Part shown: one piece after another, positions 8,028 to 61,996 of the stretch
Position numbering within the stretch: position 1 is the first letter of the stretch
How the letters are laid out: every line of letters begins with the position of its first letter
NCBI GenBank assembly: GCA_003707115.1
Contig: PPNB01000002.1
Location: 620,001-684,000 of the forward strand
Reading direction: 5' to 3'
Length of the DNA stretch: 64,000 bases
DNA from: Tortispora ganteri
Taxonomy: Eukaryota
Translations under genes and position numbers: made by a program
Notes under the pieces: generated by a model
What the model was told of the DNA's origin: nothing
What the model saw: the letters and a program-made list of their open reading frames with translations, nothing else
Database searches by the model: none

Positions 8028-8729
8028 TTAGAGGTACATATTGCTAGAAGTGAATACCGAATGGTAGTCTGAAGGATTGAAACTAAAAACGTTATTAGAG
8101 ATTTTGTTTAAAACGCTGACTAGAGCCGAAATAGATTCAAATGAGTAAACTTCATGACCTGGAATGCCGTTTGATTGTACTGTTAAAGCTATATGAGGAA
8201 TGTTGTTATACTCGCAAGTATCTAGTAAACCAGCGAGTATACCTGATATATAGTTTGGAGGAGCCAATTGTGGTATATTAAGAGTAGTATTAGCAGCTGA
8301 TGTGGCAAGATATTGCACATTGTTTGCGTTAATATCATCGATAGGTGAAATCGAGACTATCAAGCTAGCTCCCGAGAATGCATGGAGCAACTTTGAAACA
8401 ATAAATTTGATTGCCTCAACTGGGATTTGATGAATTGGCAAAAATATAAAAGAAGTTTCATTAGAACAATAAACTGTAGATTTATAATTAATTGTAACGG
8501 ATCTAGCGATACTTTTAACGTTCAAAGTAAGTTGAGAGATTGGCGAGATGTTTAGTAGAAGTGGCAGATTATGTAAAGATTGTGGCAAAACAACAATTGT
8601 TTTAGATATTAAATCAGGTATTAAAAGATTTGATTCAACTGTGAAATCAATATCAACAGATTCATCATCTGAGAAATCATCCAGTAAATGTCTTTGTGAA
8701 TAAGTTTCGAGCCACGGTTTTAATTGCAT
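8028..8729 (-). CDS. PBA1: Proteasome assembly chaperone PAC1/Pba1-like
   Basis: LAPPNYISGILAGLL motif and a C-terminal HbYX motif (MYL). First ATG at 8729 (MQLKPW). Confidence 0.7.
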   Translation of the reverse strand: MQLKPWLETYSQRHLLDDFSDDESVDIDFTVESNLLIPDLISKTIVVLPQSLHNLPLLLNISPISQLTLNVKSIARSVTINYKSTVYCSNETSFIFLPIHQIPVEAIKFIVSKLLHAFSGASLIVSISPIDDINANNVQYLATSAANTTLNIPQLAPPNYISGILAGLLDTCEYNNIPHIALTVQSNGIPGHEVYSFESISALVSVLNKISNNVFSFNPSDYHSVFTSSNMYL

Positions 8730-8814
8730 AGTTTTTAAGCTGTGAATTTGACTGAGGAAGGAGAAGTGGGTCAATATTGTGATGGTAGTCAACTAAACTA
8801 CGACACTACTAGAA

Positions 8815-9188
8815 ATGGATGAATATATGCAAGAGTTACATAAATTAAAAGAGTGTAAGTATTTATAAGGATATATTGAATTTATTGATACTAATATGTA
8901 GCATTTACGAAATTGATTCAAGTACGACAACAACTTGAGGCACAGTACCAAGAGAACAAGATTCTTATTGAAGAATTTGAAAATCTGAAGCCAGAGACTA
9001 AAATATACAGACTAATTGGTCCTGTTATGGTTCCACAAGATTATGATGAATCTAAAATTAATGTGAAGAATCGTATTGATTTTATTGAAGGAGAACGTAA
9101 AAGAGTTGATACACAATTAGAAGATATTCAGAAAAAGATGTCAGATATTCAATCAAAAGCTAATGAGTTACAGTCAAAGTCAAAGTAA
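8815..9188 (+). CDS. YKE2: Prefoldin subunit 6; exons 8815-8854 and 8902-9188
   Basis: RQQLEAQYQEN and KIYRLIGPVMVPQD motifs. A 47-nt intron (GTAAGT..TACTAAT..TAG, 8855-8901) joins the exons in frame to give MDEYMQELHKLKESFTKLIQVRQQ. Confidence 0.92.
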
Positions 9189-9294
9189 TATATAATATAT
9201 TTTAAATCTATATTTATAGATATAATATCGCTGTAAATATATATATAGCCTTGACATAGAAGTGAAATTATAACTATAGATCTTAAAAGATACT

Positions 9295-9792
9295 CTAAAC
9301 AGAACTTTTTTTCCTCTTTTTCGATATTTTATCACTCTTTGACCGTTTTTTCTGTTCTAAACTATATCCCGTAGGTATATATCTAGTACGCATTCCTTCT
9401 AATTGTTTTGGCATCTGTTGCGGTTGTATGACTTGCTTATAGTCGATCTCTGGCAAATTCACATATTCAATGATCCGCAACCTTTTCACTACTTCTTGTT
9501 TAGATACTTTTAATTCTGCACTTTTCCCTATTAAAACACCAATATTTTTATCTGTTTCAAGTTCTAGATTCGCTAAAAATGTCTTACCTTTAACTTCGAA
9601 TCGGTATTCGCCCTTCTCGAGCTTTTTTACATCGATTTTCGGTAAATCTTCTAATTCAAGACATTCAGGTACTTGTACCAACCATATTTCTTTATTCTTA
9701 ATTTGTTCCTCTTTAATACCACCTTTTTCGTATTCTTTATATCCTCTAGGAGGTTTATACGCCAACTCTTCGATCTCGTCAGTCAATGTCAT
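9295..9792 (-). CDS. RPA34: RNA polymerase I subunit A34.5
   Basis: YKPPRGY, KEIWLVQVP and GMRTRYIPTGY motifs plus a lysine-rich tail. ATG at 9792. Confidence 0.8.
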   Translation of the reverse strand: MTLTDEIEELAYKPPRGYKEYEKGGIKEEQIKNKEIWLVQVPECLELEDLPKIDVKKLEKGEYRFEVKGKTFLANLELETDKNIGVLIGKSAELKVSKQEVVKRLRIIEYVNLPEIDYKQVIQPQQMPKQLEGMRTRYIPTGYSLEQKKRSKSDKISKKRKKSSV

Positions 9793-9835
9793 ATATAATA
9801 ATGCAAAAGTGAAGATTTTCTCCTCCCAATAATAC

Positions 9836-11464
9836 ATGAAGAGATCAACGCCGTTAAGTGCTTATGCAGTACAAAAACGTCAATGTATAGATAAAACACA
9901 TACAGATTTAAATTTAATCCAGTCATTAGATTCTTCTTCTGAATCGGAATCGGAATCAGAAGATGGAACTTATCATATAGATCGCTCCATCTCTAGATGT
10001 GATCCTTTGTCCCATGATCACTATTATGTCAAAGATGAAATCACTTATATAACTATTCCCGAAGAAACATGTATTCAATTAACTGGTATTTATGAATTTA
10101 AAGTTGTCCAAGGTATTATATTTATTTATTCTACAGAAATTTCTTCAAAAAATGATTGGCAGCAAGTCGTTACCCTCGAACAAGCTTATATCCCGACAAT
10201 CAAAGCTGGCCATGAAACTGTTATTATTGCTGTCAGATCAGTTCTTTTTAACCCACAAGCGTTTCCTGTACCATTATTCAGTGGTGAACCATTTACTAAT
10301 GGTGGATCATTCTCATTTGTCTCACAACGTTCTACAATCATGGCTATTAATTATCAAACCCCTTTGTGTAATCCTGATATTGATGATCTCTGCATTGGAT
10401 CAAAACTCGTGGTAATGGGTGCTAAAGGACATGGCAAAAGTACTTTCTGTCAACAACTAATGAATAGTATTACTGATAAACCAATTATTTATTTTGATCT
10501 TGATCCAGGCCGTCCTGGGTTCACTCCTCCTGGTGTAATTGCAGCAACACGCATCACTGGTCCATTATTCGACACTCCTTTTCTCAGACTCTCAAATAAC
10601 TTTAAGAATCTTGAAACGCGATTATTGTCATTCACTAGCGCAAAATTTGATATTGATAATTATATTAATGCAGCTAAAGATCTGTTTAATTCTGTCGATA
10701 CAACTAATGCAATTACAATTGTTAACTCTCCTGGTTGGATCCGTCCCGCAGGTTTATCTATTCTCTCAGATGCAATGTCACCAATATCCAATGATATCAC
10801 TCATGTGGTTTACATGAAATACGAATTCGAATGGTCTAGTCCATTCGTAAATGCAACATCTCATGAAGTTCTCGATTTACCCACTAATACCGCGCACACC
10901 GTCAATAACAAAACTGCTAGAGATTTACATTTATCTTGTCATCTTCGAGATATTTGTAAAAATAGAAGTTTCAACTTGCCTTTATGCTACACACAACCCA
11001 AACTGTTCTCTTATGACGAACCTAGCAATCATCTTCTAATAGCAGGTGCGTATTTTGCCGATCCTGGTCTTACAATCACAGATCCTATATTATCACTAAA
11101 CGGGGCTGTTGTATCACTGGTATTTGCTCCTGAAATCACAAGTAATAACGCCAAAAATAATATACTTGTTATTCAAGACTTGAACCTGATTAAATGTGAG
11201 TTCATATGTCATGCAGTTGTTCATTCATTTCTCCTCGACAAGAAAGTGCTTCGAATTATTATGCCTGGCAATATTACTGCAATTCCTGAACATAAAAGTC
11301 TTGTATTAGTAAGAGGCGATCTGCAATTGAATGAATGGGACAGGTTCCCTGGATTCATTGAATCTTTAAGAGGTTACACAATTCCATATACCTCTCCGAT
11401 CATGCATCTTCCTGGTGAATTACCATGGCGTCCTAGGCGAAATATCGGACGCCGTCATAACTAG
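9836..11464 (+). CDS. GRC3: Polynucleotide 5'-hydroxyl kinase Grc3/Nol9 (Clp1 family)
   Basis: P-loop GAKGHGKST, DLDPGRPGFTPPG, IVNSPGW and C-terminal WRPRRNIGRR. Confidence 0.9.
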   Translation: MKRSTPLSAYAVQKRQCIDKTHTDLNLIQSLDSSSESESESEDGTYHIDRSISRCDPLSHDHYYVKDEITYITIPEETCIQLTGIYEFKVVQGIIFIYSTEISSKNDWQQVVTLEQAYIPTIKAGHETVIIAVRSVLFNPQAFPVPLFSGEPFTNGGSFSFVSQRSTIMAINYQTPLCNPDIDDLCIGSKLVVMGAKGHGKSTFCQQLMNSITDKPIIYFDLDPGRPGFTPPGVIAATRITGPLFDTPFLRLSNNFKNLETRLLSFTSAKFDIDNYINAAKDLFNSVDTTNAITIVNSPGWIRPAGLSILSDAMSPISNDITHVVYMKYEFEWSSPFVNATSHEVLDLPTNTAHTVNNKTARDLHLSCHLRDICKNRSFNLPLCYTQPKLFSYDEPSNHLLIAGAYFADPGLTITDPILSLNGAVVSLVFAPEITSNNAKNNILVIQDLNLIKCEFICHAVVHSFLLDKKVLRIIMPGNITAIPEHKSLVLVRGDLQLNEWDRFPGFIESLRGYTIPYTSPIMHLPGELPWRPRRNIGRRHN

Positions 11465-18791: not shown

Positions 18792-19706
18792 ATGACAGAA
18801 CTCACACAAGTTTGGTTTATCACAGATGCAGGATCGCCCGTAGGATTACAAACTGCACGCAAAGCTTTATCGAATGGTCATAGCGTCGTGCTCGGATGCC
18901 GACCTTCAGGCTACGCTGGCTGCAAGAAACTGCAGGACCAGTTCCAGTGGACTTCACTGCTAGTAGAGCTTGATCCACGTAACAAAGCGCTCTGCCAGAG
19001 TGCAATCGAATACATAGTGCGTAAATGGAACCGCATAGATGTTGTTTTTTGCTGTTCGTCAAGCTGTATCGTCGGTGCTGTAGAAGAGTGCGAAGATTGG
19101 CATATGGCACGCGCTATTGAGGACAACGTCTATACGCAGGTAAACATTATCCGTACTGTCTTGCCTACTCTAAGAGCACAAAGATCAGGTCATTTAGTAT
19201 TTGTTACAGGGATTACTGGAGCAATAGGTATGCCAGGTCTCAGTATACTGTGCACTGTCAACCACTGTTTAGAAGGACTATGCGAGAGTCTTGCCTTTGA
19301 AATTGCGCCATTCAATTTAAAAGTATCAATTGTACAATTGCCATTGCAGGCAATGGCTCTGTACAAAACAACGTTCACCGCACAGCAACCAGAATATGAA
19401 AATTCAGAATCAACACGAGTCCGCAAACTTCTCAGTGGATTCCGTGCCCTGCCCCCAGACTCGCTAACGCTCGGAGTGCGTATAATTATGTCTATAGCAG
19501 GAACAGAAAACCCTCCCTTACGTATAGTCGCAGGAAAAGATGCTATTTCGCAGGTCCGCGACAAAATGCGAACTGTCTCTGAGGAACTCGAAGAGTTCAT
19601 GACCACATGCATTGCTTGCGAAATCAATCCGCCGTCTAAACTACCATTCACAGAAGACACAGACTCAGAATCTGAAAAAGTACCTTCTTCAACAGAACAA
19701 TCATAA
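18792..19706 (+). CDS. Short-chain dehydrogenase/reductase-fold protein with degenerate catalytic motifs
   Basis: VWFIT, RIDVV, LRAQRSGHLV, ESLAFEIAPFNLKVSIV and NPPLRIVAG motifs. Lacks TGxxxGxG and YxxxK. First ATG at 18792. Confidence 0.85.
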   Translation: MTELTQVWFITDAGSPVGLQTARKALSNGHSVVLGCRPSGYAGCKKLQDQFQWTSLLVELDPRNKALCQSAIEYIVRKWNRIDVVFCCSSSCIVGAVEECEDWHMARAIEDNVYTQVNIIRTVLPTLRAQRSGHLVFVTGITGAIGMPGLSILCTVNHCLEGLCESLAFEIAPFNLKVSIVQLPLQAMALYKTTFTAQQPEYENSESTRVRKLLSGFRALPPDSLTLGVRIIMSIAGTENPPLRIVAGKDAISQVRDKMRTVSEELEEFMTTCIACEINPPSKLPFTEDTDSESEKVPSSTEQS

Positions 19707-20423
19707 CAGAATATTTAGTAAACTATCCACCGTGATTTGCAATTCCTGGTTCTCTACTTCGTTTGTTTTTCGAAACGCGAACTTCGCGGTACTCAACACC
19801 TGCCTATATAGTGCACTGTACTCATCTGACGACTGTGAAACGCCTCTTATACGCAGTCCTGCAGTCACTGCTTTATGAAACTGCTGGTCTCTAGTGTCTT
19901 GACTTCTCTGGCGCTCGTTTTGGAGCTCGCATTGTCGCTCCATCTCTTTGTCCAATTCTGTTTGCTGTGCGACTTTCTTAAATCCTGCAAGTTTTTGCGA
20001 ACTTGTATTCAGAAACTTGTTCCCATTACTTTTATTATTACCGGACACGTTAAATTTGTTAAGCATAACTCTTACCGCCCGCACATGCGCCTCGTTGTCG
20101 ATCTTCTGAATATAAACACATATGTATTTCCCGGCTTGTGAAGGTATAGGTGCCAGAATCGCTTTACTATATATATCTATAGGACATTCTGTAAGCATAA
20201 ATGACTGTAATAATTCGCTTAACGCGTGCGATTCACTAAAGACGCGCATAAACGGCGGCTCAATTGCCCATAATGGAATCTTATTAGGGTCGATTACGAG
20301 TCCTATAGCGATCTGTACGCCACGTAGCAATTTCCTATGTTCCAAATTGTCGCTATAGATCGTGAACGATAATTCAGAGGATACTCCTTGCACGTACAGA
20401 GAACAGCGGAGTATTCTATGCAT
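19701..20423 (-). CDS. SLD7: Sld7-like DNA replication initiation factor
   Basis: The C-terminus AGLRIRGVSQSSDEYSALYRQVLSTAKFAFR...LQITVDSLLNIL resembles the Sld7 C-terminal domain. ACGCG (20426) and CACGAAA (20465) lie upstream. Confidence 0.7.
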   Translation of the reverse strand: MHRILRCSLYVQGVSSELSFTIYSDNLEHRKLLRGVQIAIGLVIDPNKIPLWAIEPPFMRVFSESHALSELLQSFMLTECPIDIYSKAILAPIPSQAGKYICVYIQKIDNEAHVRAVRVMLNKFNVSGNNKSNGNKFLNTSSQKLAGFKKVAQQTELDKEMERQCELQNERQRSQDTRDQQFHKAVTAGLRIRGVSQSSDEYSALYRQVLSTAKFAFRKTNEVENQELQITVDSLLNILL

Positions 20424-35470: not shown

Positions 35471-36424
35471 TCAAATGATTTGTGTCTTTGATTTGACAAG
35501 ACCACCAGAGAAGTTGCGCATGATATGAGAACGTGAGTTCCGATCCTGAATTCTGTGGAAAGCTTGACGCACATGACGGGGTTCAATAGCAGACACTTGC
35601 TTTTCTGGTCCACTAAACAAGAAATGATCATGAGGCTTACGGTCTGGAGATTCATATCGCTTGTTTTCAATTGCTCCGACCAATAAAGCCTCTCCGGTGA
35701 GAATCTCGACCATGTCAAAAGTCAGAAACCCGAGAATATCCATGATATCGTCATTAAGTCTGCCTTCAACAACTTGCGTAGTACGGGCCCATTCCCTGAA
35801 CCTCTTAGCTTTACGATAAGTAAAAGATGCTTGGCGGCATTCTGACCAGTGAATGTATTCTTCTCTTGTCATTTTACGGGTCTTTTCGTCTGCAACTTTT
35901 AGTCTCACCATTGTCGCTAGGTTCTCCTCCTTGTCAAGATCTTCATCATCGTCATCCTGTTCAGGTACACGTTCTGGAAACATACAGACAAGTTCCCAAG
36001 AAAGTCTAAGCGATTTCTTTTTGCGAGTTTGAGCTGTACCGGCAGCTGCACGTTTCCCGGGAGCGACATCGCCTGCTGCTAGTTCCTCCTCGTCTTCCTC
36101 CTCTTCTACAATATCAGCGTCACCGCCATCCTGTTGGCTTTTAGCGCGCTTTCGAACGTCTTTCCAGCCGAGAAATGTGCGCAATCGAGATATTTTTGCT
36201 TTATCGTGACGGATCTGGAACATGAGATCTTCAGTGGATATACTGCGTGCACCTCTGCGGCTAGCCAACTGCCCGGCCTGACTCAAGATCTCAATGACTT
36301 GCGATCTCACAATATCCTCGATCAACGCGGTAGTTTCCGGTAGTGGATCATTAACTTCTCCTGCAATAAACATCATCTGCTGAATTTCTACTTTGTATTT
36401 GTATTTGTCTTTGTCCTTATCCAT
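35471..36424 (-). CDS. SPT3: SAGA subunit Spt3
   Basis: YKVEIQQMMF, MTREEYIHWSECRQASFTYRKAKRFREW and DILGFLTFD motifs. ATG at 36424. Confidence 0.96.
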   Translation of the reverse strand: MDKDKDKYKYKVEIQQMMFIAGEVNDPLPETTALIEDIVRSQVIEILSQAGQLASRRGARSISTEDLMFQIRHDKAKISRLRTFLGWKDVRKRAKSQQDGGDADIVEEEEDEEELAAGDVAPGKRAAAGTAQTRKKKSLRLSWELVCMFPERVPEQDDDDEDLDKEENLATMVRLKVADEKTRKMTREEYIHWSECRQASFTYRKAKRFREWARTTQVVEGRLNDDIMDILGFLTFDMVEILTGEALLVGAIENKRYESPDRKPHDHFLFSGPEKQVSAIEPRHVRQAFHRIQDRNSRSHIMRNFSGGLVKSKTQII

Positions 36425-36498
36425 TTTGACGGGGTTGGTAAATGGTAAGTAACGTCGCTGGGGAACCTTCATGGTTCACCCACATACACACTCAGACA

Positions 36499-37749
36499 AT
36501 GAAGAAGATCAGCGATTACACGAAATGGACACATGGCGATCTTATAAGAAGAATCAATGAGCTCGAAAAGGCTATTGGAAAGCGCATGCCTACTGTCGCA
36601 CCGAAAATCACGAACACTCCTGAACTCGAAGCCAAGCTGTTTGCCAATACCCGCCATGTTGCGCTAAAATTTTCGTACTTCGGATGGAGCTACAATGGGC
36701 TGGCAGTTCAAAAAGAGCCGACGCCGCTTCCGACAGTCGAAGGTACAATTTTAGGAGCTTTGGCTAGATGCAGATTGATCCCGCAAGCGGCAGAGTACGA
36801 GCCCGAACTGGTCGATTTCAGTCGTGCCGGACGTACAGACAAGGGAGTGTCAGCACGCAGTCAAGTAATCAGTCTTAAAGTACGGAGCTTGCTGAACAGA
36901 GAGCAGCAGATGGACCCGACATTTGATGAACATGAACTTAAGTACACACATATGCTGAATAGTTTACTACCTGAAGATATACGGTTCTACCAGGAGTGCC
37001 TGCGGCCCCCAGCAGGGTTTGATGCACGGTTTTCCTGCAAGTCTCGGCGATATCGGTACTTTTTCTTTGCACATGATCAATTTGGCGCGCCTTTTGTGAA
37101 TATACATCAGATGCAAGTGGCCGCTGCGCTCTTTAAGGGTGACCATGACTTTAGAAACTTCTGCAAGGTAGATGGATCAAAACAAATCACGAACTTTGTA
37201 AGAACGATATATGATTCGCAGATCATCGAGATCTCTAAAGATGCGACGACAGGCCGGACATTGTACGCATTTGATTTGCATGGAAGTGCATTCCTGTGGC
37301 ACCAGGTTCGGAGCATGATCGCGGTCCTGTTTCTGATTGGACAGGGGCATGAAGAACCACGAATTATTGAAGAGCTGTTTGATATAGACAAGTACCCGGG
37401 TAAGCCAGGCTACATTATGGCTGAGGACTTCCCCCTGGTGCTCTGGGATATAACTTACGGTGCAGATGTTGTGTGGCAAGATTGTTCACGGGACACAAAG
37501 ACCATGCAGTCGCTGAGTGATTGTTTTTATAACCAATGGTATTCGACGGCTGTACGAGGAAGCATTCAACACCAGATCGGATCGACCGTGGTACAGTCAG
37601 CGCCAACCCAAACACATATGCGCATAGTGACTGGTGGCGGACTGGGCTGCCCACTACGCAAGTACGTGCCATTGAAGGACAAACCTAGAGGACTAGAACC
37701 TGAGGAGGTCAACATGAGATTCAGAAAAAGAAAAATAAGAGATGATTAG
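36499..37749 (+). CDS. DEG1: tRNA pseudouridine(38/39) synthase
   Basis: RHVALKFSYFGWSYNG, RAGRTDKGVSA, FDARFSC, HDFRNFCK and GSAFLWHQVR motifs. Confidence 0.94.
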   Translation: MKKISDYTKWTHGDLIRRINELEKAIGKRMPTVAPKITNTPELEAKLFANTRHVALKFSYFGWSYNGLAVQKEPTPLPTVEGTILGALARCRLIPQAAEYEPELVDFSRAGRTDKGVSARSQVISLKVRSLLNREQQMDPTFDEHELKYTHMLNSLLPEDIRFYQECLRPPAGFDARFSCKSRRYRYFFFAHDQFGAPFVNIHQMQVAAALFKGDHDFRNFCKVDGSKQITNFVRTIYDSQIIEISKDATTGRTLYAFDLHGSAFLWHQVRSMIAVLFLIGQGHEEPRIIEELFDIDKYPGKPGYIMAEDFPLVLWDITYGADVVWQDCSRDTKTMQSLSDCFYNQWYSTAVRGSIQHQIGSTVVQSAPTQTHMRIVTGGGLGCPLRKYVPLKDKPRGLEPEEVNMRFRKRKIRDD

Positions 37750-54933: not shown

Positions 54934-57117
54934 TTAATCACTATTGCGATATCCAAACTTCACCGCACCTTCTGTCTGTTCAGGATACTGTCGCACAAGA
55001 TAAAAATATGTCAATTGTTTATAATTCTCTTCGCTCTGTTGGTATTTCGCCGTGTTTGATGTGTCGGCAATAGCTAGCCACGGTTCTCCAAGCTTAAAAT
55101 CGCTGTTCACATAGATATCTGATATAATTGACATATTTTGCTGTCTCCATTTTCTTCCGTGAAATGCCATTTCAGCTTTGAAAATCTTGAGTGCGTATTT
55201 CCGTAATTCTGGGTGATCAACAAAAAGATAATGGCTTAACGATAGTGTATGGTCAGTACGCGAAGATGCAAACCTCACCAAGCGGAAAGCTTTCTGTTTT
55301 ATTAACTTGTGCATAATTCTCAAAAAATCAACAGCCCAAGTCAGTCTCAGCCATGAGAAATATCCGTCATCGCCTTCCGGTATGACCAGCTGGCTGGCAG
55401 TCATGTTCGGGATCTTAAGCACTGAAGTCAGCCACACTGAACTAGGTCGCGTTGAAGCTAATAAGAAAAACGCAGGAGGATCTCGAAATAACACCTGAGA
55501 AAAAATTCTTAGTGCTCTAGAATCAACTAAAAGCGTGGCCATATACTCAAATTTGAGCACATGACTTCTTTTAGACCATTTTAAAAACAAAAGGAGGTAT
55601 TCCGAAATAGATCTAAGTACAATATCCTGTGAGCGAATAGTATCTTCACTAGCATAATTCATTGCACCATTACCTTGTGTGTGATGCGTATTTTTCTCTT
55701 CGATATACTGAATGACAGTCAAAAGAGAATCAAGAATCATGGCTACCATAGAGGGTAAGTACCGCAATGAAGAAGCATATAGCGATTCGATCAGATCCAA
55801 AGTATCGGAAATGTAATCATCCGTACATATCATTTTGCTTACCTCTTTTGGGAGTTCAGACTTGAATCCTTGATTGATATTCCATTTGTGAAGTATAAAC
55901 TTCTCATCAATGATCTGTTTTTGAGAAGCGGACATGTACAAAGACGAGTTGAGTAGTTCACATGCCTCTTTGATAGAAGCTGGTGCCTCGCCCTCTCCAG
56001 AGAAAAGAAAAGGATAGTCTTGGTTTGTTTGGAAAATTCCTTTTCTAACCTTATGCCCACCCGGAGAGTGATCCATCTGATTGTTATTGCTCTGAGACAG
56101 TAAAGGCTGAGACGAGATCGTCAGAGAATCTGAGTTGTGCGCTAGTTGAGCAGAAGAAGAATTAAAGGACCGTCCTTCAAGGATCTCTATAGGTATCGGG
56201 TTTGCAGGTGGTGTCAGGATAGGATACTTTGAAGTGATCTGGTGGCGGAAAGAACTGTATGTGAGAAGAGATGCAGACAAGTCAGATTTGGAGTCCCGGT
56301 TTTGTGATACACCATTAAGTTCATTAAGAAGTAATCTAGATTTCTCAAGATCATCAAAATTTCCAAATGCATATTGTATTAGGGTATTAAGGAGAAGGAA
56401 GAATTGCTGCAGTGGGATATCGACATCTGTGATTGCACAAGCATCAGCCATTATTCGTATCAAAGATGATAAGACATCTGTAGCTAGTCGTCTATAGCGA
56501 ATAGGTTTAGGCTGATCGGAATGGAGAAGAACTTGGAAAATGACATATAGGACTGACATGGTAGAAAAAAACACTCCTCTGGATAGGTGTATAGTTTTAG
56601 TAGACTCTGGAGACGATATATGGAGAGATTGAAGATTAAGGGTAGATATTGTGTGCTTTGAAATGAGCAAGCTCATTGTATCAAGGAAGGTAGGTAGTGA
56701 CAAGCAGAGAGCCACGTCGTTTCTAATTGATGAGATGAGCTCTTCTAGAGAAGAATATGTTCCAGATAACCCGAATAAGAGCGCAGATAAAGCTTGAATT
56801 GCTAAACTTATTGAGTTCGTAGACGAAGAGCGGCATCTGGAGAGTAGGGTGTCGATAGTTGCTAGTTTAAGATCAGGAGACAATGATTGCCAGTCAGACG
56901 AGTTAGTTAGAGAATTGAGAGTCTTAGCGGAGTTTTTCTGGATATGCGATATTATGAGGGATTCAGATGCAGAGAACCAAAGGTCAATTTCTATATGCAA
57001 AGATTGCATGTGTGTGTATTCTAACTCTAGAGGTTTTGAAGCGGAAATGGGGAGATCTGAGTTGTATGCATCGGGCCCGTTTGTGAGTAATTCAGAAACG
57101 ATATCTGGATCATTCAT
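54934..57117 (-). CDS. FAR11: STRIPAK subunit Far11/STRIP (N1221 family)
   Basis: EIDLWFS, FQTNQDYPFLF, PASIKEA, LKWSKRSHVLKFEY and GRKWRQQNMSIISDIY motifs. Confidence 0.88.
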   Translation of the reverse strand: MNDPDIVSELLTNGPDAYNSDLPISASKPLELEYTHMQSLHIEIDLWFSASESLIISHIQKNSAKTLNSLTNSSDWQSLSPDLKLATIDTLLSRCRSSSTNSISLAIQALSALLFGLSGTYSSLEELISSIRNDVALCLSLPTFLDTMSLLISKHTISTLNLQSLHISSPESTKTIHLSRGVFFSTMSVLYVIFQVLLHSDQPKPIRYRRLATDVLSSLIRIMADACAITDVDIPLQQFFLLLNTLIQYAFGNFDDLEKSRLLLNELNGVSQNRDSKSDLSASLLTYSSFRHQITSKYPILTPPANPIPIEILEGRSFNSSSAQLAHNSDSLTISSQPLLSQSNNNQMDHSPGGHKVRKGIFQTNQDYPFLFSGEGEAPASIKEACELLNSSLYMSASQKQIIDEKFILHKWNINQGFKSELPKEVSKMICTDDYISDTLDLIESLYASSLRYLPSMVAMILDSLLTVIQYIEEKNTHHTQGNGAMNYASEDTIRSQDIVLRSISEYLLLFLKWSKRSHVLKFEYMATLLVDSRALRIFSQVLFRDPPAFFLLASTRPSSVWLTSVLKIPNMTASQLVIPEGDDGYFSWLRLTWAVDFLRIMHKLIKQKAFRLVRFASSRTDHTLSLSHYLFVDHPELRKYALKIFKAEMAFHGRKWRQQNMSIISDIYVNSDFKLGEPWLAIADTSNTAKYQQSEENYKQLTYFYLVRQYPEQTEGAVKFGYRNSD

Positions 57118-57584
57118 TGTTTTTTATGGTCAATCTCTTCAATAGTTTTAGATATTTGTAATTTTGTATCTTCAGAAAGAGCGGGATCCTTTAATAGAAG
57201 AGATAGTTTCTCTATTTGGCGGATATGTGCAGACTTACGAGCCTTTTTTGTTGCTTGAGCTTTACGTTTGCGTAGTAGATCAGCTTTTAAAAGGGAATGA
57301 CTCTTGTCACCGTTATAGTGTATATCCAATGCCTCTGCAAGTCTGTAACGGGCTATACGGCGATTTTCTTCGCGGGATCTAGAATCCTGGCAATAAACTA
57401 TGAGACCTGTTGGAATGTGCTTTAGCTGTACCTTGCTATTAGTCTTGTTAATAGCTTGGCCACCTGGACCTGAGCCTTTTATGAACGATTCTGTTATTTC
57501 AGATTCGTCTATTATCCTTGGACGAGGTGGGAGCTGTTTTCTGGCAAGCAAATGGGTGCAAGCAGAGAAGCGGCGATACCACAT
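57114..57584 (-). CDS. PTH3: Mitochondrial GGQ peptidyl-tRNA hydrolase / ribosome rescue factor (C12orf65/Rso55 type)
   Basis: FIKGSGPGGQAINKTNSKVQLKHIPTG and SREENRRIAR motifs, with a presequence and a basic tail. Confidence 0.85.
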   Translation of the reverse strand: MWYRRFSACTHLLARKQLPPRPRIIDESEITESFIKGSGPGGQAINKTNSKVQLKHIPTGLIVYCQDSRSREENRRIARYRLAEALDIHYNGDKSHSLLKADLLRKRKAQATKKARKSAHIRQIEKLSLLLKDPALSEDTKLQISKTIEEIDHKKQ

Positions 57585-57699
57585 TGACGTGGGGTGTTTT
57601 GTTATAAAGTGGGATGGGAAAGGTTGACTTTTATACCAATAATAAGGGCATTTTAATCTGATTGTTTTTTTAGACTAAACCTGATTTTATAGAAGGAAA

Positions 57700-57976
57700 A
57701 TGAGTAAACCTATTAGTTTAACCGGTCTAATTCGAAGAAAATGTTATCACATTTATACTCTAACACCTGCTGTTTTATTTACGCAGAAGGAGAACAGGAT
57801 CATAGGTATGTATATATGAAACGATGGTTTACGAAGTTATGGACGCTTTATTAACAATATAAGGATCAATTCTACTGATATTAAGTAGTTTATTTTTGTG
57901 GACATTATATACATATTTTCCATATGGTATTGACACGTTAATTAGTAACATGAACTATTATATTACGGGTAATTGA
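57700..57976 (+). CDS. Serine palmitoyltransferase small subunit (ssSPT/Tsc3-like), 72 aa; exons 57700-57805 and 57864-57976 (not in the ORF track)
   Basis: The spliced product is MSKPISLTGLIRRKCYHIYTLTPAVLFTQKENRIIGSILLILSSLFLWTLYTYFPYGIDTLISNMNYYITGN. The 58-nt intron reads GTATGT..TATTAAC..AAG. One TM helix and a Y.P...YYI.G tail. Confidence 0.75.
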
Positions 57977-58042
57977 AATATATACTAACGGATGGACTAC
58001 CTAAAACCCCTTTGTAGAGTTAGACTTTGACTTCACTAGAAT

Positions 58043-58702
58043 ATGAAAGTATACATTGTGCGACACGGAGAGACTAACCACAATCTACAGCGGATCTATC
58101 AAGGTCAGTTGGATACAGAGATTAATGCTGTAGGTAAGGATCAGGCTAAAAAGTGCAGTCGACGTACGGACTTGGCCGATGTAGAGTATGTATATTCTAG
58201 CGATCTGAAACGGTGCCGAATGACTAGCGAGCTTTTGTTTGCCAAGCACAAAAACCTTGGGCTCATAGAATACGATTCGCGACTAAGAGAGAGGTACATG
58301 GGTGCCTTGCAGGGGATGTCTATAGACGAGGGCCGTGTTCTACTAGCCGCTGAGCATAAGGGTACCTCTGATTATGGCGAAAGTAAACAAGAGATGGATA
58401 ATCGATTACTGGACTTTTGGGATTCTGTTATTAAGAAAAATGCGGCAGATAAAAAATACGAGAAAATATGTATTGTTACACATGGTGGTGTTATCAACAA
58501 GCTGCTTTCACTGTTAGTGAATGAGAGACGAACATATGATTTGAATATCCCCGAAAGCTCAATAAGAGTGCCAGGAAATACTTCAGTAACTGTTATTACT
58601 ACTGATATTGATAGTGACGGTGAATTATATGGAACTATAGATTTAATGGGCGATATAAGTCATTTAAGTTATCACGATATGGTGGATCAGGAACTTAGAT
58701 AA
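58043..58702 (+). CDS. Histidine phosphatase (phosphoglycerate mutase superfamily)
   Basis: RHGET, SSDLKRC, LRERYMG, VTHGG and NTSVT motifs. Confidence 0.92.
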   Translation: MKVYIVRHGETNHNLQRIYQGQLDTEINAVGKDQAKKCSRRTDLADVEYVYSSDLKRCRMTSELLFAKHKNLGLIEYDSRLRERYMGALQGMSIDEGRVLLAAEHKGTSDYGESKQEMDNRLLDFWDSVIKKNAADKKYEKICIVTHGGVINKLLSLLVNERRTYDLNIPESSIRVPGNTSVTVITTDIDSDGELYGTIDLMGDISHLSYHDMVDQELR

Positions 58703-59541
58703 TGATCAGTTTCAAGAAACGGAAGAAATTTGATAAAAGTGAACCGAAATTTAACAAAAGTGAATCGAAATTTGACAAAAGTGAATCGAAACTTGTATAT
58801 AATTCGGAAGACACTAAAGAATTAAATATAAATAATATAAATGAAATAGAATCTGATGATATAATACATGTGGCTAAGAAACTGAAACAAAAGAATGTAC
58901 AACTGTTGAAAAAGGGGCAAAATGATTTAAAGAACGACACTATATCGGAATTTAATAAAGATGATTCTGAAAACACCGATCATGTAATTCAAACAAAAAA
59001 TAACGATGATTCTTCTATAGAGAAAGATAAACAGAATGAAATTGAATCGATAGAATCTAATGATTTAGTATCTATTGATCCTACCTACAAAGGGCAAAAC
59101 AATTACAAATCATTCACTCATACAAATTCCAAAAAACTGAAAACATATTCGAATATTGATTTAACTACATACACAGATTATCAGCCAGATATATGCAAAG
59201 ACTACAAACTAAATGGTTATTGCGGATATGGCGATAACTGCAAGTTCCTGCATTTGCGTGAAGATTTCAAAGCCGGCTGGCAATTAGATAGCGACTGGGA
59301 CAAATTTGTTAAATCATCAAAATCTATATCTGACCCAAAAAAGGATATAGAAATCCCTTTTAAATGCGTTATATGCAAAAATGATTATACTGATCCTGTT
59401 GTGACCGCATGTGACCACTACTTCTGCGAATTGTGTTTCCTTAAGAGATCCAAGAAGACAGCATCATGCTTTGTATGTGGAACAAACACCAACAGATCAG
59501 CTAAACCAGCCAAAAACTTGCGCGATCTATTAAAAGCATGA
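58702..59541 (+). CDS. CWC24: Pre-mRNA splicing factor Cwc24 (CCCH and RING domains)
   Basis: N-terminal FKKR, DYQPDICKDYKLNGYCGYGDNCKFLH and IPFKCVICK...CDHYFCELC motifs. Confidence 0.95.
   Translation: MISFKKRKKFDKSEPKFNKSESKFDKSESKLVYNSEDTKELNINNINEIESDDIIHVAKKLKQKNVQLLKKGQNDLKNDTISEFNKDDSENTDHVIQTKNNDDSSIEKDKQNEIESIESNDLVSIDPTYKGQNNYKSFTHTNSKKLKTYSNIDLTTYTDYQPDICKDYKLNGYCGYGDNCKFLHLREDFKAGWQLDSDWDKFVKSSKSISDPKKDIEIPFKCVICKNDYTDPVVTACDHYFCELCFLKRSKKTASCFVCGTNTNRSAKPAKNLRDLLKA
58726..58791 (+). repeat. 3 x 21-bp coding tandem repeat in CWC24
   Basis: AAATTT[G/A]A[T/C]AAAAGTGAA[C/T]CG x3, encoding KFDKSEP-KFNKSES-KFDKSES. Confidence 0.9.
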
Positions 59542-59650: not shown

Positions 59651-61996
59651 ATGAGCTCACCACAGCTGCCGAAGGAGTCAAGACGCGTCAAGGTCTATGA
59701 GCTTGTGGATTCTACGTGGGAAGACCGCGGTACTGGATTCTGCGGTGGAGAAATGCAGCACAATGATGCCTTTATATTCGTAGTAAGCGAAACTGACCCG
59801 GATCAGTACTTCCTCAGAACAAAGATCTTTCCCGCGGTCGAATACCAGAAACAGGACGATACCTTGATAGTATGGACTAATCCTGACGATACTGACCTCG
59901 CTCTTAGTTTCCAAGAAGCACAGGGCTGTGATGAAACTCATGAGTTCATCCAAGCAGCTCAGAGACTCTATAATGACTCCCCAGGCGACACAAATCCTTC
60001 AGATATAATGTATCTATCTACCGTCAGCTCGATGCCCGATGAGCCCTCGCCTGAGAACCTCTCAAAGATAGAATTTTGTATAGACTATGCATTTCGGACT
60101 CAGTTTGGCAGAGACAGTCTTGTTCAGTTCCTCCAGAAACCTGGCTACCTAAGCAAACTACTTGGTCTGTTACCACAAGCAGAACAACTCTCACAAGCCA
60201 ACCCGGACGACGTCAAGGATGGCAATTCTATGCTCTTTATATTAAATAGAATATTAAAAGCAATATTTATTTTGAATGACAGCGAAATTGTTGAAATATT
60301 GATCAGTGACGAGAACTTTACTAATGTTTTAGGTGTACTCGAGTATGACTCCGAGTACCCGAATTACAAAGCGAATCATCGCTCATTCATCGAATCTTAC
60401 AGCAAGTTCAAGCAAGTTGTACCAATACCAGATGAACTTATTTGTGAAAGCATTGTTCATACATTTAGACTGCAGTATCTAAAAGATGTCGCTCTAGTAC
60501 GTCTCGTTGATGACAATACATTCACACTTCTCGCGTCGCTTATATACTTCAGCCAGGTCGAGATTATTCAGTACATTCAGAACTGCGAGTCTTTCATAAC
60601 TGAACTTTTTGGCCTTTACACAAATTCTTCTACACCGCTGGAAACTAAGCGGGATGGAATACGTTTCCTTATGCAATTCGTATCTACAGCTAAAGCTTTG
60701 CTGGCAGAGCAGAGAGCTAACATCTATGCAAAGTTTTTAGACCATGGTCTTTATCATGCCATAATATTTGCCCTTGATGATTTAGATACCTTTATATGCT
60801 CCTCAGGTGCAGAACTTATCATGGCCCTTATTGAGGATATCTCATTTTACATGAAAGACATATCTTTAAATTATAACACGTCTAGGAATTCATTTGACGC
60901 CAGAAAACTCTTGAAGAAAATGGTCACTCTTGTTGCTAATAACCATACTTTAAGCACCAAAACGCAGATTCCTGAAGCTATACGCATTTTTCTGACTGCT
61001 GATCTTCCTTTTTCTGATCAAAGTCCTGATCCTGAAAGAGGTGCATCCGACACAATGAAATTTTATTTAGAGCTACTTGAAAGCCTTTATGATTCTATAC
61101 TGAAAATTACTCCTGAAAAAACTGAGCATATGTCAATTACAGAAATAGCTTTTACCTCATACCTTTGCGACTTATTTTGCGTATGCATTCGAACGGAAAA
61201 GTCATATATTCTTGAGTTTGCTAACGAGTCAGATATATGGAATTCTCTCTGTGTTCTACTTCAATCACCAAATTCTCAAGTTGTATCAAGTGCTTTAAGG
61301 TGCTTCCGTCATGGAATTGGATCAATGCATGATCTCACAATTGAATGCATTGAGGAGACAGATTTCATCAAATTGGCTCTTGAAATTACGATTTCTAATT
61401 TGAACAGAAACACCTTGCTGGAATCTGCATTTTTAGAGCTCTTTGATTCTTTACAAAAAGTTGCTGCGAATGAACCACCATCATCTCCAATTATAAGGTT
61501 GTTTAAAACTATCGTTACTGATCACCATGAACTTGTGGATAAACTCACTGTTGGCTCTCTCAATGAAAGGTACAAGACTGTAGAGAAACTCATTGATCGC
61601 GATGATACAACTAGTAATCTTAAAATGCTACTGGTTAATATGGAGCAAGAATCAACAGTTTCTGGAACGGAAGAGATTGAAATTTGGTCTCGATCTAATG
61701 ATTCGCATTCTGGATATTTTGGAACACAAGAGACCGAGTACATAGAAGAGCAGAAGTATCTTATTGAGAGCAATCTGGAAAATATGAAACAAGATAATAA
61801 TGACAACGGAAAAGATATTGCAGAGCAGGAAAAAAATAGCTTGACTGACTCCTCTCAGACTCCGGTACCATCTCCGGGTACCGAGACAAATTCTAATAAA
61901 TTAGAGCGGAAACGCTCATTCGAGATGGCCAAAGAAGATGATGAAGAAACGGAAACTCAGCGGAATAAGCGAGAAAAATCGGAACCGACTAATTGA
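59651..61996 (+). CDS. PSY2: Protein phosphatase 4 regulatory subunit 3 (Psy2/SMEK)
   Basis: RRVKVYEL..WEDRGTGFC, YQKQDDTLIVW, DLALSFQE and TFRLQYLKDV motifs. Confidence 0.94.
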   Translation: MSSPQLPKESRRVKVYELVDSTWEDRGTGFCGGEMQHNDAFIFVVSETDPDQYFLRTKIFPAVEYQKQDDTLIVWTNPDDTDLALSFQEAQGCDETHEFIQAAQRLYNDSPGDTNPSDIMYLSTVSSMPDEPSPENLSKIEFCIDYAFRTQFGRDSLVQFLQKPGYLSKLLGLLPQAEQLSQANPDDVKDGNSMLFILNRILKAIFILNDSEIVEILISDENFTNVLGVLEYDSEYPNYKANHRSFIESYSKFKQVVPIPDELICESIVHTFRLQYLKDVALVRLVDDNTFTLLASLIYFSQVEIIQYIQNCESFITELFGLYTNSSTPLETKRDGIRFLMQFVSTAKALLAEQRANIYAKFLDHGLYHAIIFALDDLDTFICSSGAELIMALIEDISFYMKDISLNYNTSRNSFDARKLLKKMVTLVANNHTLSTKTQIPEAIRIFLTADLPFSDQSPDPERGASDTMKFYLELLESLYDSILKITPEKTEHMSITEIAFTSYLCDLFCVCIRTEKSYILEFANESDIWNSLCVLLQSPNSQVVSSALRCFRHGIGSMHDLTIECIEETDFIKLALEITISNLNRNTLLESAFLELFDSLQKVAANEPPSSPIIRLFKTIVTDHHELVDKLTVGSLNERYKTVEKLIDRDDTTSNLKMLLVNMEQESTVSGTEEIEIWSRSNDSHSGYFGTQETEYIEEQKYLIESNLENMKQDNNDNGKDIAEQEKNSLTDSSQTPVPSPGTETNSNKLERKRSFEMAKEDDEETETQRNKREKSEPTN

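Follow-up and report, generated by a model that had tools for sequence, protein, structure and literature searches.

In the literature compared, genes that meet almost or entirely without a spacer fall into several described kinds. Compacted microsporidian genomes have tiny spacers, with transcripts that enter or start in neighbouring genes and with 5′ UTRs shorter than 7 nt in E. cuniculi (PMC2803860). For translational coupling after a long open reading frame (ORF), the reviews consulted give chiefly viral and retrotransposon examples, besides a few animal mRNAs (PMC5972666, PMC10275272), and in the fungal virus CHV1 reinitiation at a UAAUG pentamer has an efficiency of merely 2.5–4.4% (PMC2699510). 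Green-algal bicistrons translated by leaky scanning show ATG depletion, zero or short inter-ORF distances and some stop-start overlaps (PMC11291117), and at dicistronic loci of Drosophila the stop-to-start distances go down to negative values (PMC4528330). In S. cerevisiae, 380 two-gene RNAs were reported for one strain, the second cistron being translationally repressed in the highly expressed classes (PMC8573964), and in mushroom fungi genes contained in polycistronic RNAs are also transcribed independently (PMC4503453).

The junction between a histidine phosphatase gene and CWC24 of Tortispora ganteri, located in a window of 64,000 nt (the whole stretch of DNA analysed), shares features with several of these systems. 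The compacted microsporidian genomes, with their tiny spacers (PMC2803860), would be the closest working analogue of the phosphatase/CWC24 pair, for which a start site inside the upstream gene is predicted; unlike microsporidia, T. ganteri is a free-living budding yeast, with just two verified spacer-free pairs in 864 kb. The pentamer, the long upstream ORF, the fungal ribosomes and the lack of UGGGA are as in the UAAUG coupling of CHV1 and victoriviruses (PMC2699510, PMC5972666), whereas the two genes here are unrelated nuclear genes able to have their own promoters. Stop and start overlap out of frame as in the TURBS systems of caliciviruses and influenza B (PMC5972666, PMC10275272), but neither TURBS motif 1 nor significant structure was found near the junction. 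In contrast to the green-algal bicistrons, the phosphatase ORF is not depleted of ATG (16 versus 15.9 expected), with A at −3. Same-strand neighbours with short spacers are likewise found among the bicistrons of S. cerevisiae and Drosophila (PMC8573964, PMC4528330); in the former, however, translation of the second gene is repressed and the genes are usually young (PMC8573964), whereas the phosphatase and CWC24 are both old and the second gene encodes a core splicing factor. No paper on this locus was found in the literature searched on Tortispora (by title) and on CWC24 overlap or bicistrons, a search made mostly outside subscription journals.

The overlap is situated at 58700-58704 of the plus strand, where the TAA stop codon of the phosphatase gene (58700-58702) and the ATG of CWC24 (58702-58704) have one A in common; the TAATG described in the sequence-only reading was thus recovered exactly where it had been placed. 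The upstream gene (58043..58702, plus strand, 219 aa) encodes a histidine phosphatase of branch 1, with a full domain (Pfam PF00300 His_Phos_1, E 6.6e-35), an RHG motif and the second catalytic His, and presumably resembles S. cerevisiae YOR283W. Its nearest named relative among the protein-search matches came from Tortispora caseinolytica (ODV90304.1); the two proteins are identical at 190 of 219 positions, equal in length, aligned without gaps and the same at the C-terminus. The last four residues recur also in another protein, P0122.

The downstream gene (58702..59541, plus strand, 279 aa) belongs to the CWC24/RNF113A family, as the product contains a CCCH finger followed by a RING (Pfam zf-CCCH and RING) and the conserved N-terminal FKKR; the best PDB match was yeast Cwc24 (5gm6_a, E 2.9e-42). 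It was the sole full match in the assembly (9.63 Mb, 1044 contigs), i.e. a single-copy gene, and the S. cerevisiae protein is described as essential (PMC6821175). In an alignment of 30 sequences (the query and 29 homologues), K5 and R7 were invariant and F4 and K6 were conserved in at least 90%. The start codon, with A at −3, is the only Met codon of the ORF, and two codons upstream of it is an in-frame TAG (58696-58698). Together with the family-typical N-terminus this bears out the earlier view that the start cannot be moved. Both ORFs are intact and their ends at the junction are natural ends, and a broken fusion is therefore unlikely.

Two further features of CWC24 were recorded. The N-terminal coding region contains a 21-nt tandem repeat of 3.4 copies (58725-58795, plus strand) that looks like a recent expansion. 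CWC24 was also found fused to other domains, namely GNAT in two cases (P0285 and P0298) and PRP38, Bud6 and DnaJ-CSL in others (P0263, P0337, P0376); a GNAT-CWC24 fusion also exists in fission yeast. In some of these proteins the fusion may come from a gene model that has run two closely spaced genes together.

The phosphatase and CWC24 are part of a plus-strand chain that begins with a newly listed serine palmitoyltransferase small-subunit-like gene (57700..57976, plus strand; two exons, 72 codons, predicted intron 57806-57863) and continues, after 66 nt, with the phosphatase, then at −1 with CWC24 and after a further 109 nt with a PP4R3 (PSY2-like) gene (59651..61996, plus strand). The small gene, which is absent from the ORF listing and ends 66 nt ahead of the phosphatase ATG, was recognised by a weak match of exon 2 to PF11779, which covers positions 30-52 of the 54 in the profile and, with E 0.009, falls short of the curated cut-off; the profile search gave no match for exon 1. 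In the 66-nt spacer (57977-58046, plus strand) a perfect TACTAAC was seen at 57983, with AGs at 58017 and 58023. Speculatively, splicing of the small-gene donor to a spacer AG would give a frame of 42-44 codons, with its TGA and the phosphatase ATG sharing a 4-nt overlap; the branch-to-AG distance of 28 nt is long for this genome. On one of 80 metagenomic CWC24 contigs (L106, 2812-5710) CWC24 is followed closely by PP4R3, in the same order as in the window, and this adjacency may be old. A search of these 80 loci with the phosphatase and with three homologous proteins found no phosphatase next to CWC24. Judged by N-termini and GC, the loci are mostly filamentous-fungus-like, and their flanks are varied and in some cases short, so that the result shows no more than that the pairing is not pan-fungal.

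A divergent promoter region of 115 nt (57585..57699) separates the plus-strand chain from a minus-strand chain, which consists of an MTRFR/C12orf65-like release-factor gene (57114..57584, minus strand, 156 aa), at −4 an N1221 + DUF3402 gene (FAR11/STRIP-like; 54934..57117, minus strand) and, after 106 nt, a 773-aa ORF. The first two genes are presumably yeast PTH4 and FAR11, and the neighbourhood presumably includes CBC1 too. The TGA of the MTRFR-like gene overlaps the next ATG by 4 nt (ATGA), the FAR11-like gene thus starting inside the stop codon of its neighbour. Across the 464 nt from the start of the MTRFR-like ORF to this ATG there is no ATG in any frame, a condition found at 0 of 291 gene starts and in 2 of 1000 CDS windows; given the protein sequence its chance is about 0.035 × 0.124 = 0.004. 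The start context is weak for the MTRFR-like gene (T at −3, 17th percentile) and strong for the FAR11-like gene (81st percentile). The ATG-free first ORF and the weak-then-strong pair of contexts are like those of the green-algal bicistrons (PMC11291117). Judged by these features, the MTRFR-like/FAR11-like pair is the better candidate for a bicistron and fits leaky scanning. The sequence-only reading had named the phosphatase/CWC24 junction the best single candidate for reinitiation-dependent expression of an essential gene; for bicistronic mRNA in general the ATGA pair has the clearer sequence signature, although for leaky scanning. The AT-biased 3′ end of the MTRFR-like gene could equally conceal a promoter.

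The rarity of such junctions was estimated in a gap census of the 64-kb window and 80 stretches of 10 kb, in total 864 kb or 9% of the 9.63 Mb and mostly from one contig; the stretches were handled separately, which under-counts pairs that span two of them, as well as very short genes and those rich in introns. Gene calling by coding score yielded 429 genes, among which 134 tandem pairs were adjacent. Of the 134 gaps one was −1 (phosphatase/CWC24), one was +26 and the remainder were at least 64 nt, the phosphatase/CWC24 pair being the sole one below 26 nt; the MTRFR-like ORF was dropped by the coding-score threshold, so the MTRFR-like/FAR11-like pair is outside the 134. A junction-centred scan (−40 to +60) returned three rows, i.e. 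phosphatase/CWC24, the +26 case and the ATGA overlap 1.6 kb away on the other strand. The +26 gap, in stretch L065, is probably an intron artefact, as the sequence at its end resembles a branch point. Thus, the 864 kb contained two verified stop-start overlaps, phosphatase/CWC24 and MTRFR-like/FAR11-like, and the gap distribution was two-peaked, with −4 and −1 followed by values of at least 64 nt and no continuum.

Other apparent overlaps were set aside. A TAATG overlap in stretch L023 was spurious, the downstream ORF being an antisense shadow of a 631-aa ORF. A looser scan gave 21 rows, comprising the two verified pairs, 18 short frames and a case in stretch L038 that was left uncounted, its upstream ORF having no Pfam match, no usable Atlas match and no AT bias. 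In this last case (8874-9440 and 8153-8881, minus strand) a Thr/Cys-rich ORF of 188 codons, of no recognised family and beginning 32 nt past a Tim17-family ORF, overlaps a tubulin-cofactor-C-like (TBCC) gene by 8 nt (AUG-nn-UGA). Divergent or convergent genes that touch or overlap by a few bases were seen in the window at 9295-11464 (RPA34-like/CLP1-like), 18792-20423 (dehydrogenase/Sld7-like) and 35471-37749 (TFIID-18kDa-like/pseudouridine synthase); these are first-ATG calls, and the true starts may lie further inside.

Gene spacing was compact, with a median convergent gap of 107 nt (112 pairs) and a 5th percentile of 64 nt for divergent gaps (102 pairs). Because composition alone places an ATG overlapping the stop at 60 of 299 stops in the genome sample, the exact pentamer counts for less than one might suppose. 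The −1 and −4 positions hold about 10% of the ATGs within −40 to +60 of stops, and under this ATG-supply null the probability that both near-zero cases are exact stop-start overlaps is about 0.01; deletion down to the limit would, we infer, likewise favour exact overlaps. What is rare is the near-zero gap more than the exact pentamer.

Codon usage around the junction was then compared with that of other genes. GC3 of the phosphatase gene was 0.27 in the 3′ half and 0.49 in the 5′ half. With amino-acid correction, the last 110 codons had a synonymous z of −2.9, and none of 284 comparable 3′ ends was lower; the fall from the 5′ to the 3′ half was likewise the largest (0/284). By window, 0-2 of 297 were lower at 40-110 codons, 7 at 130 and 22 at 150. 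On the other side of the junction, the first 110 codons of CWC24 had a z of −2.6 (12/277 lower, i.e. the lowest 4%), and the bias was weak in shorter windows (75/289 lower at 40 codons, 40/289 at 80) and extended about 450 nt into the gene. The effect was local, as the 5′ half of the phosphatase gene (z +2.1) and the start of PP4R3 (z +2.0) were GC-rich; non-coding flanks in this genome sample are AT-rich. A similar bias was present at the 3′ end of the MTRFR-like gene (1/297 lower at 60 codons) and absent from the downstream FAR11-like gene, in which the 5′ CDS is unlike a 3′ flank. Among other tandem pairs, the AT shift was absent in the 13 with a gap below 150 nt, and no correlation of AT bias with gap was observed in the pairs tested (126 in all).

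The AT-biased synonymous sites of the phosphatase 3′ half delimit a candidate embedded CWC24 promoter (58370..58699, plus strand), and the AT-rich 5′ half of CWC24 delimits candidate signals for the 3′ end of the phosphatase mRNA (58702..59150, plus strand). The latter region contains TATATA at 58796, 94 nt past the phosphatase stop, and A-rich repeats at 58825-58842, which together occupy 94-140 nt past the stop. TATATA occurred in 16% of real downstream flanks as against 4% of CDS 5′ ends, and arose in 11% of synonymous resamples of CWC24. The 4-mer promoter score of the last 50 phosphatase codons was not significant (7% of synonymous resamples as high) and that of codons −100 to −50 was below expectation; the codon usage of CWC24 itself accounts for the terminator-like score of its 5′ region, and no consensus TATA box was found in the final 150 nt of the phosphatase gene. 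Altogether, the AT bias of synonymous sites to either side of the junction tends to favour a promoter and a terminator embedded in the coding sequences, with a marker that the control pairs did not validate, and low RNA structure favouring reinitiation would produce an identical bias.

Both genes are intact, the spacer is zero and the synonymous sites around the junction are AT-biased. On balance, we consider it probable that the phosphatase and CWC24 are overlapping but separately transcribed monocistronic units with a predicted promoter, start site and polyadenylation site. Compaction would have deleted the entire spacer; CWC24 would be transcribed mainly from a promoter inside the phosphatase 3′ half, with a start site near its ATG, and translated by ordinary cap-dependent scanning, and the phosphatase mRNA would end within the AT-rich 5′ coding part of CWC24. 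Two-gene read-through RNAs may occur but would not be the main source of Cwc24, and TAATG would be the end point of spacer loss and no signal. Several results speak against these separate units: the unvalidated AT marker, the null 4-mer scores, the lack of a TATA box, the two-peaked gaps with both near-zero cases exact stop-start overlaps, and the short leader available. The last point arises from two phosphatase-frame ATGs, at 58646 and 58679, which open frames of 18 and 7 codons that stop at 58702. Because the ATG at 58679 lies 23 nt upstream, an AUG-free CWC24 leader can measure at most 22 nt, and any longer leader would carry one of these short frames, of 7 or 18 codons, which run into the CWC24 AUG; T. 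caseinolytica has Thr at this position.

Separate units are favoured, in turn, by the intervening ATGs, the lack of a branch point and of TURBS motif 1, and the lack of a significant fold, as well as by the recycling and decay factors encoded in the genome. The low efficiency of reinitiation in CHV1 (PMC2699510), the independent transcription of polycistronic genes in mushroom fungi (PMC4503453) and the repressed second cistrons of S. cerevisiae (PMC8573964) point the same way. The 16 internal ATGs of the phosphatase ORF correspond to the 15.9 expected from synonymous resampling, i.e. there is no depletion, which excludes leaky scanning by ribosomes that enter at the 5′ end of the phosphatase; a bicistronic mRNA would consequently require reinitiation or internal entry. 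As had been noted earlier, neither WCCCAH nor TGGGA is present just upstream of the junction. The nearest TGGGA, i.e. TURBS motif 1 (UGGGA), is at 58418, about 280 nt away. WCCCAH occurs in merely 71 of 290 upstream windows and its absence is thus uninformative; the lack of both motifs is no argument against an internal promoter. RNA folding (without pseudoknots), which bears on a structured TURBS motif 2/2* element, gave z values of −0.89 and −0.08 against shuffles, neither significant.

The genome was found to encode eIF2D-, DENR- and MCT1-like ORFs, eIF3j, UPF1 and a UPF2-like ORF; in terms of domains, three SUI1 ORFs (111, 238 and 593 aa) and one Pre-PUA ORF were seen. In yeast, such factors are established as acting in ribosome recycling and in the decay of mRNAs whose 3′ tails are very long. 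Profile searches for Upf2 and Upf3 gave no match, but their controls were silent too, and loss of NMD as an enabler was dropped, as an ORF of 1111 aa that has two MIF4G domains would be UPF2. The genome is without an obvious loss that would favour reinitiation.

The sequence-only reading had put the junction forward as a candidate for reinitiation-dependent expression of CWC24, which would take a bicistronic mRNA with coupled termination-reinitiation. A few percent of the ribosomes would restart at the overlapping AUG without TURBS, an output that would suffice for a low-abundance splicing factor. We regard this as possible, if on the whole unlikely. The exact UAAUG pentamer after a long ORF, as in fungal-virus coupling, and the zero spacer, well within the about 20 nt between stop and start typical of TURBS, fit such a mechanism, as do the two-peaked gap distribution, the unstructured, AT-rich sequence 5′ of the stop and the exclusion of leaky scanning, and the ATG 23 nt upstream would be harmless on a bicistron and hence tolerated. 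The lack of TURBS does not rule reinitiation out, because fungal-virus coupling, in the available account, needs neither motif 1 nor TURBS (PMC5972666); fungal ribosomes reinitiate on CHV1 RNA without motif 1 (PMC2699510, PMC5972666), and selection in S. cerevisiae can yield 80S reinitiation on bicistrons (PMC11952965). Against this stand the fold and motif scans, which found no cis element at the junction, the recycling and decay factors, the 0/80 metagenomic loci with a phosphatase neighbour and the lack of a known functional link between the phosphatase and Cwc24. Furthermore, the AT bias about 450 nt into CWC24 is explained by an embedded terminator and is unneeded by reinitiation. Of the earlier claim, the immovable start and the unlikely fusion were supported, as was the need for reinitiation or internal entry on any bicistronic mRNA; the AT bias leans to the embedded promoter and terminator.

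A more elaborate form of the same idea includes the neighbouring pair. Cwc24 would be made by TURBS-independent reinitiation on an obligate bicistron in spite of the recycling factors, and the 115-nt region would also drive a minus-strand bicistron read by leaky scanning, the whole forming an operon-like island with two coupling mechanisms. This we hold to be doubtful.

In an improbable hybrid, transcription would start internally but upstream of 58679 or 58646, so that the leader carries the 7- or 18-codon frame that stops on the CWC24 AUG, and Cwc24 would be made by leaky scanning past this short frame or by reinitiation after it, with expression damped. Both ATGs open phosphatase-frame stretches that stop at 58702, eukaryotic ribosomes commonly reinitiate after short ORFs, and SLAMF1 has a uORF with a UGAUG overlap (PMC5972666); however, the Met at 58679 is replaced by Thr in T. 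caseinolytica, and reinitiation after a short uORF normally requires spacing past the stop (PMC5972666). Alternative splicing from an upstream exon to the YAG at 58696-58698, by which the phosphatase ORF would be lost, is very improbable: CTTAG stops 3 nt short of the ATG and the small spliced gene upstream has donor-like sites, but none of the YAGs at 58690, 58698 and 58709 has a CTRAY branch point within 45 nt, and the likely introns of the sample, read by eye, are short with the branch point near the AG. Hardly credible, too, is an assembly error in which one base is missing and the true product is a phosphatase-CWC24 fusion, as, although one inserted base near the junction would open the frame and CWC24-GNAT fusions exist (P0285, P0298), the T. 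caseinolytica orthologue is a stand-alone protein of 219 aa with the same C-terminus, P0122 shares the last four residues, CWC24 starts at the family N-terminus and a domain scan found His_Phos in none of 16 longer CWC24 homologues picked from the protein-search matches, all in line with the earlier view that a frameshift fusion is unlikely.

If reinitiation were true after all, the junction would be a native nuclear budding-yeast example of coupling after a long ORF and would offer multigene expression in yeast an element that is natural and can be tested. The overlap itself is real and rare and belongs to known kinds. In its best reading, that of two separately transcribed units, it would represent an extreme yet known outcome of compaction, with coding sequence doubling as promoter and terminator. 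Searches of the protein collection recognised no Tortispora CWC24, although the phosphatase orthologue was present, and the gene may have stayed unannotated owing to the overlap. The junction thus carries a warning that overlapped genes can escape gene predictors.
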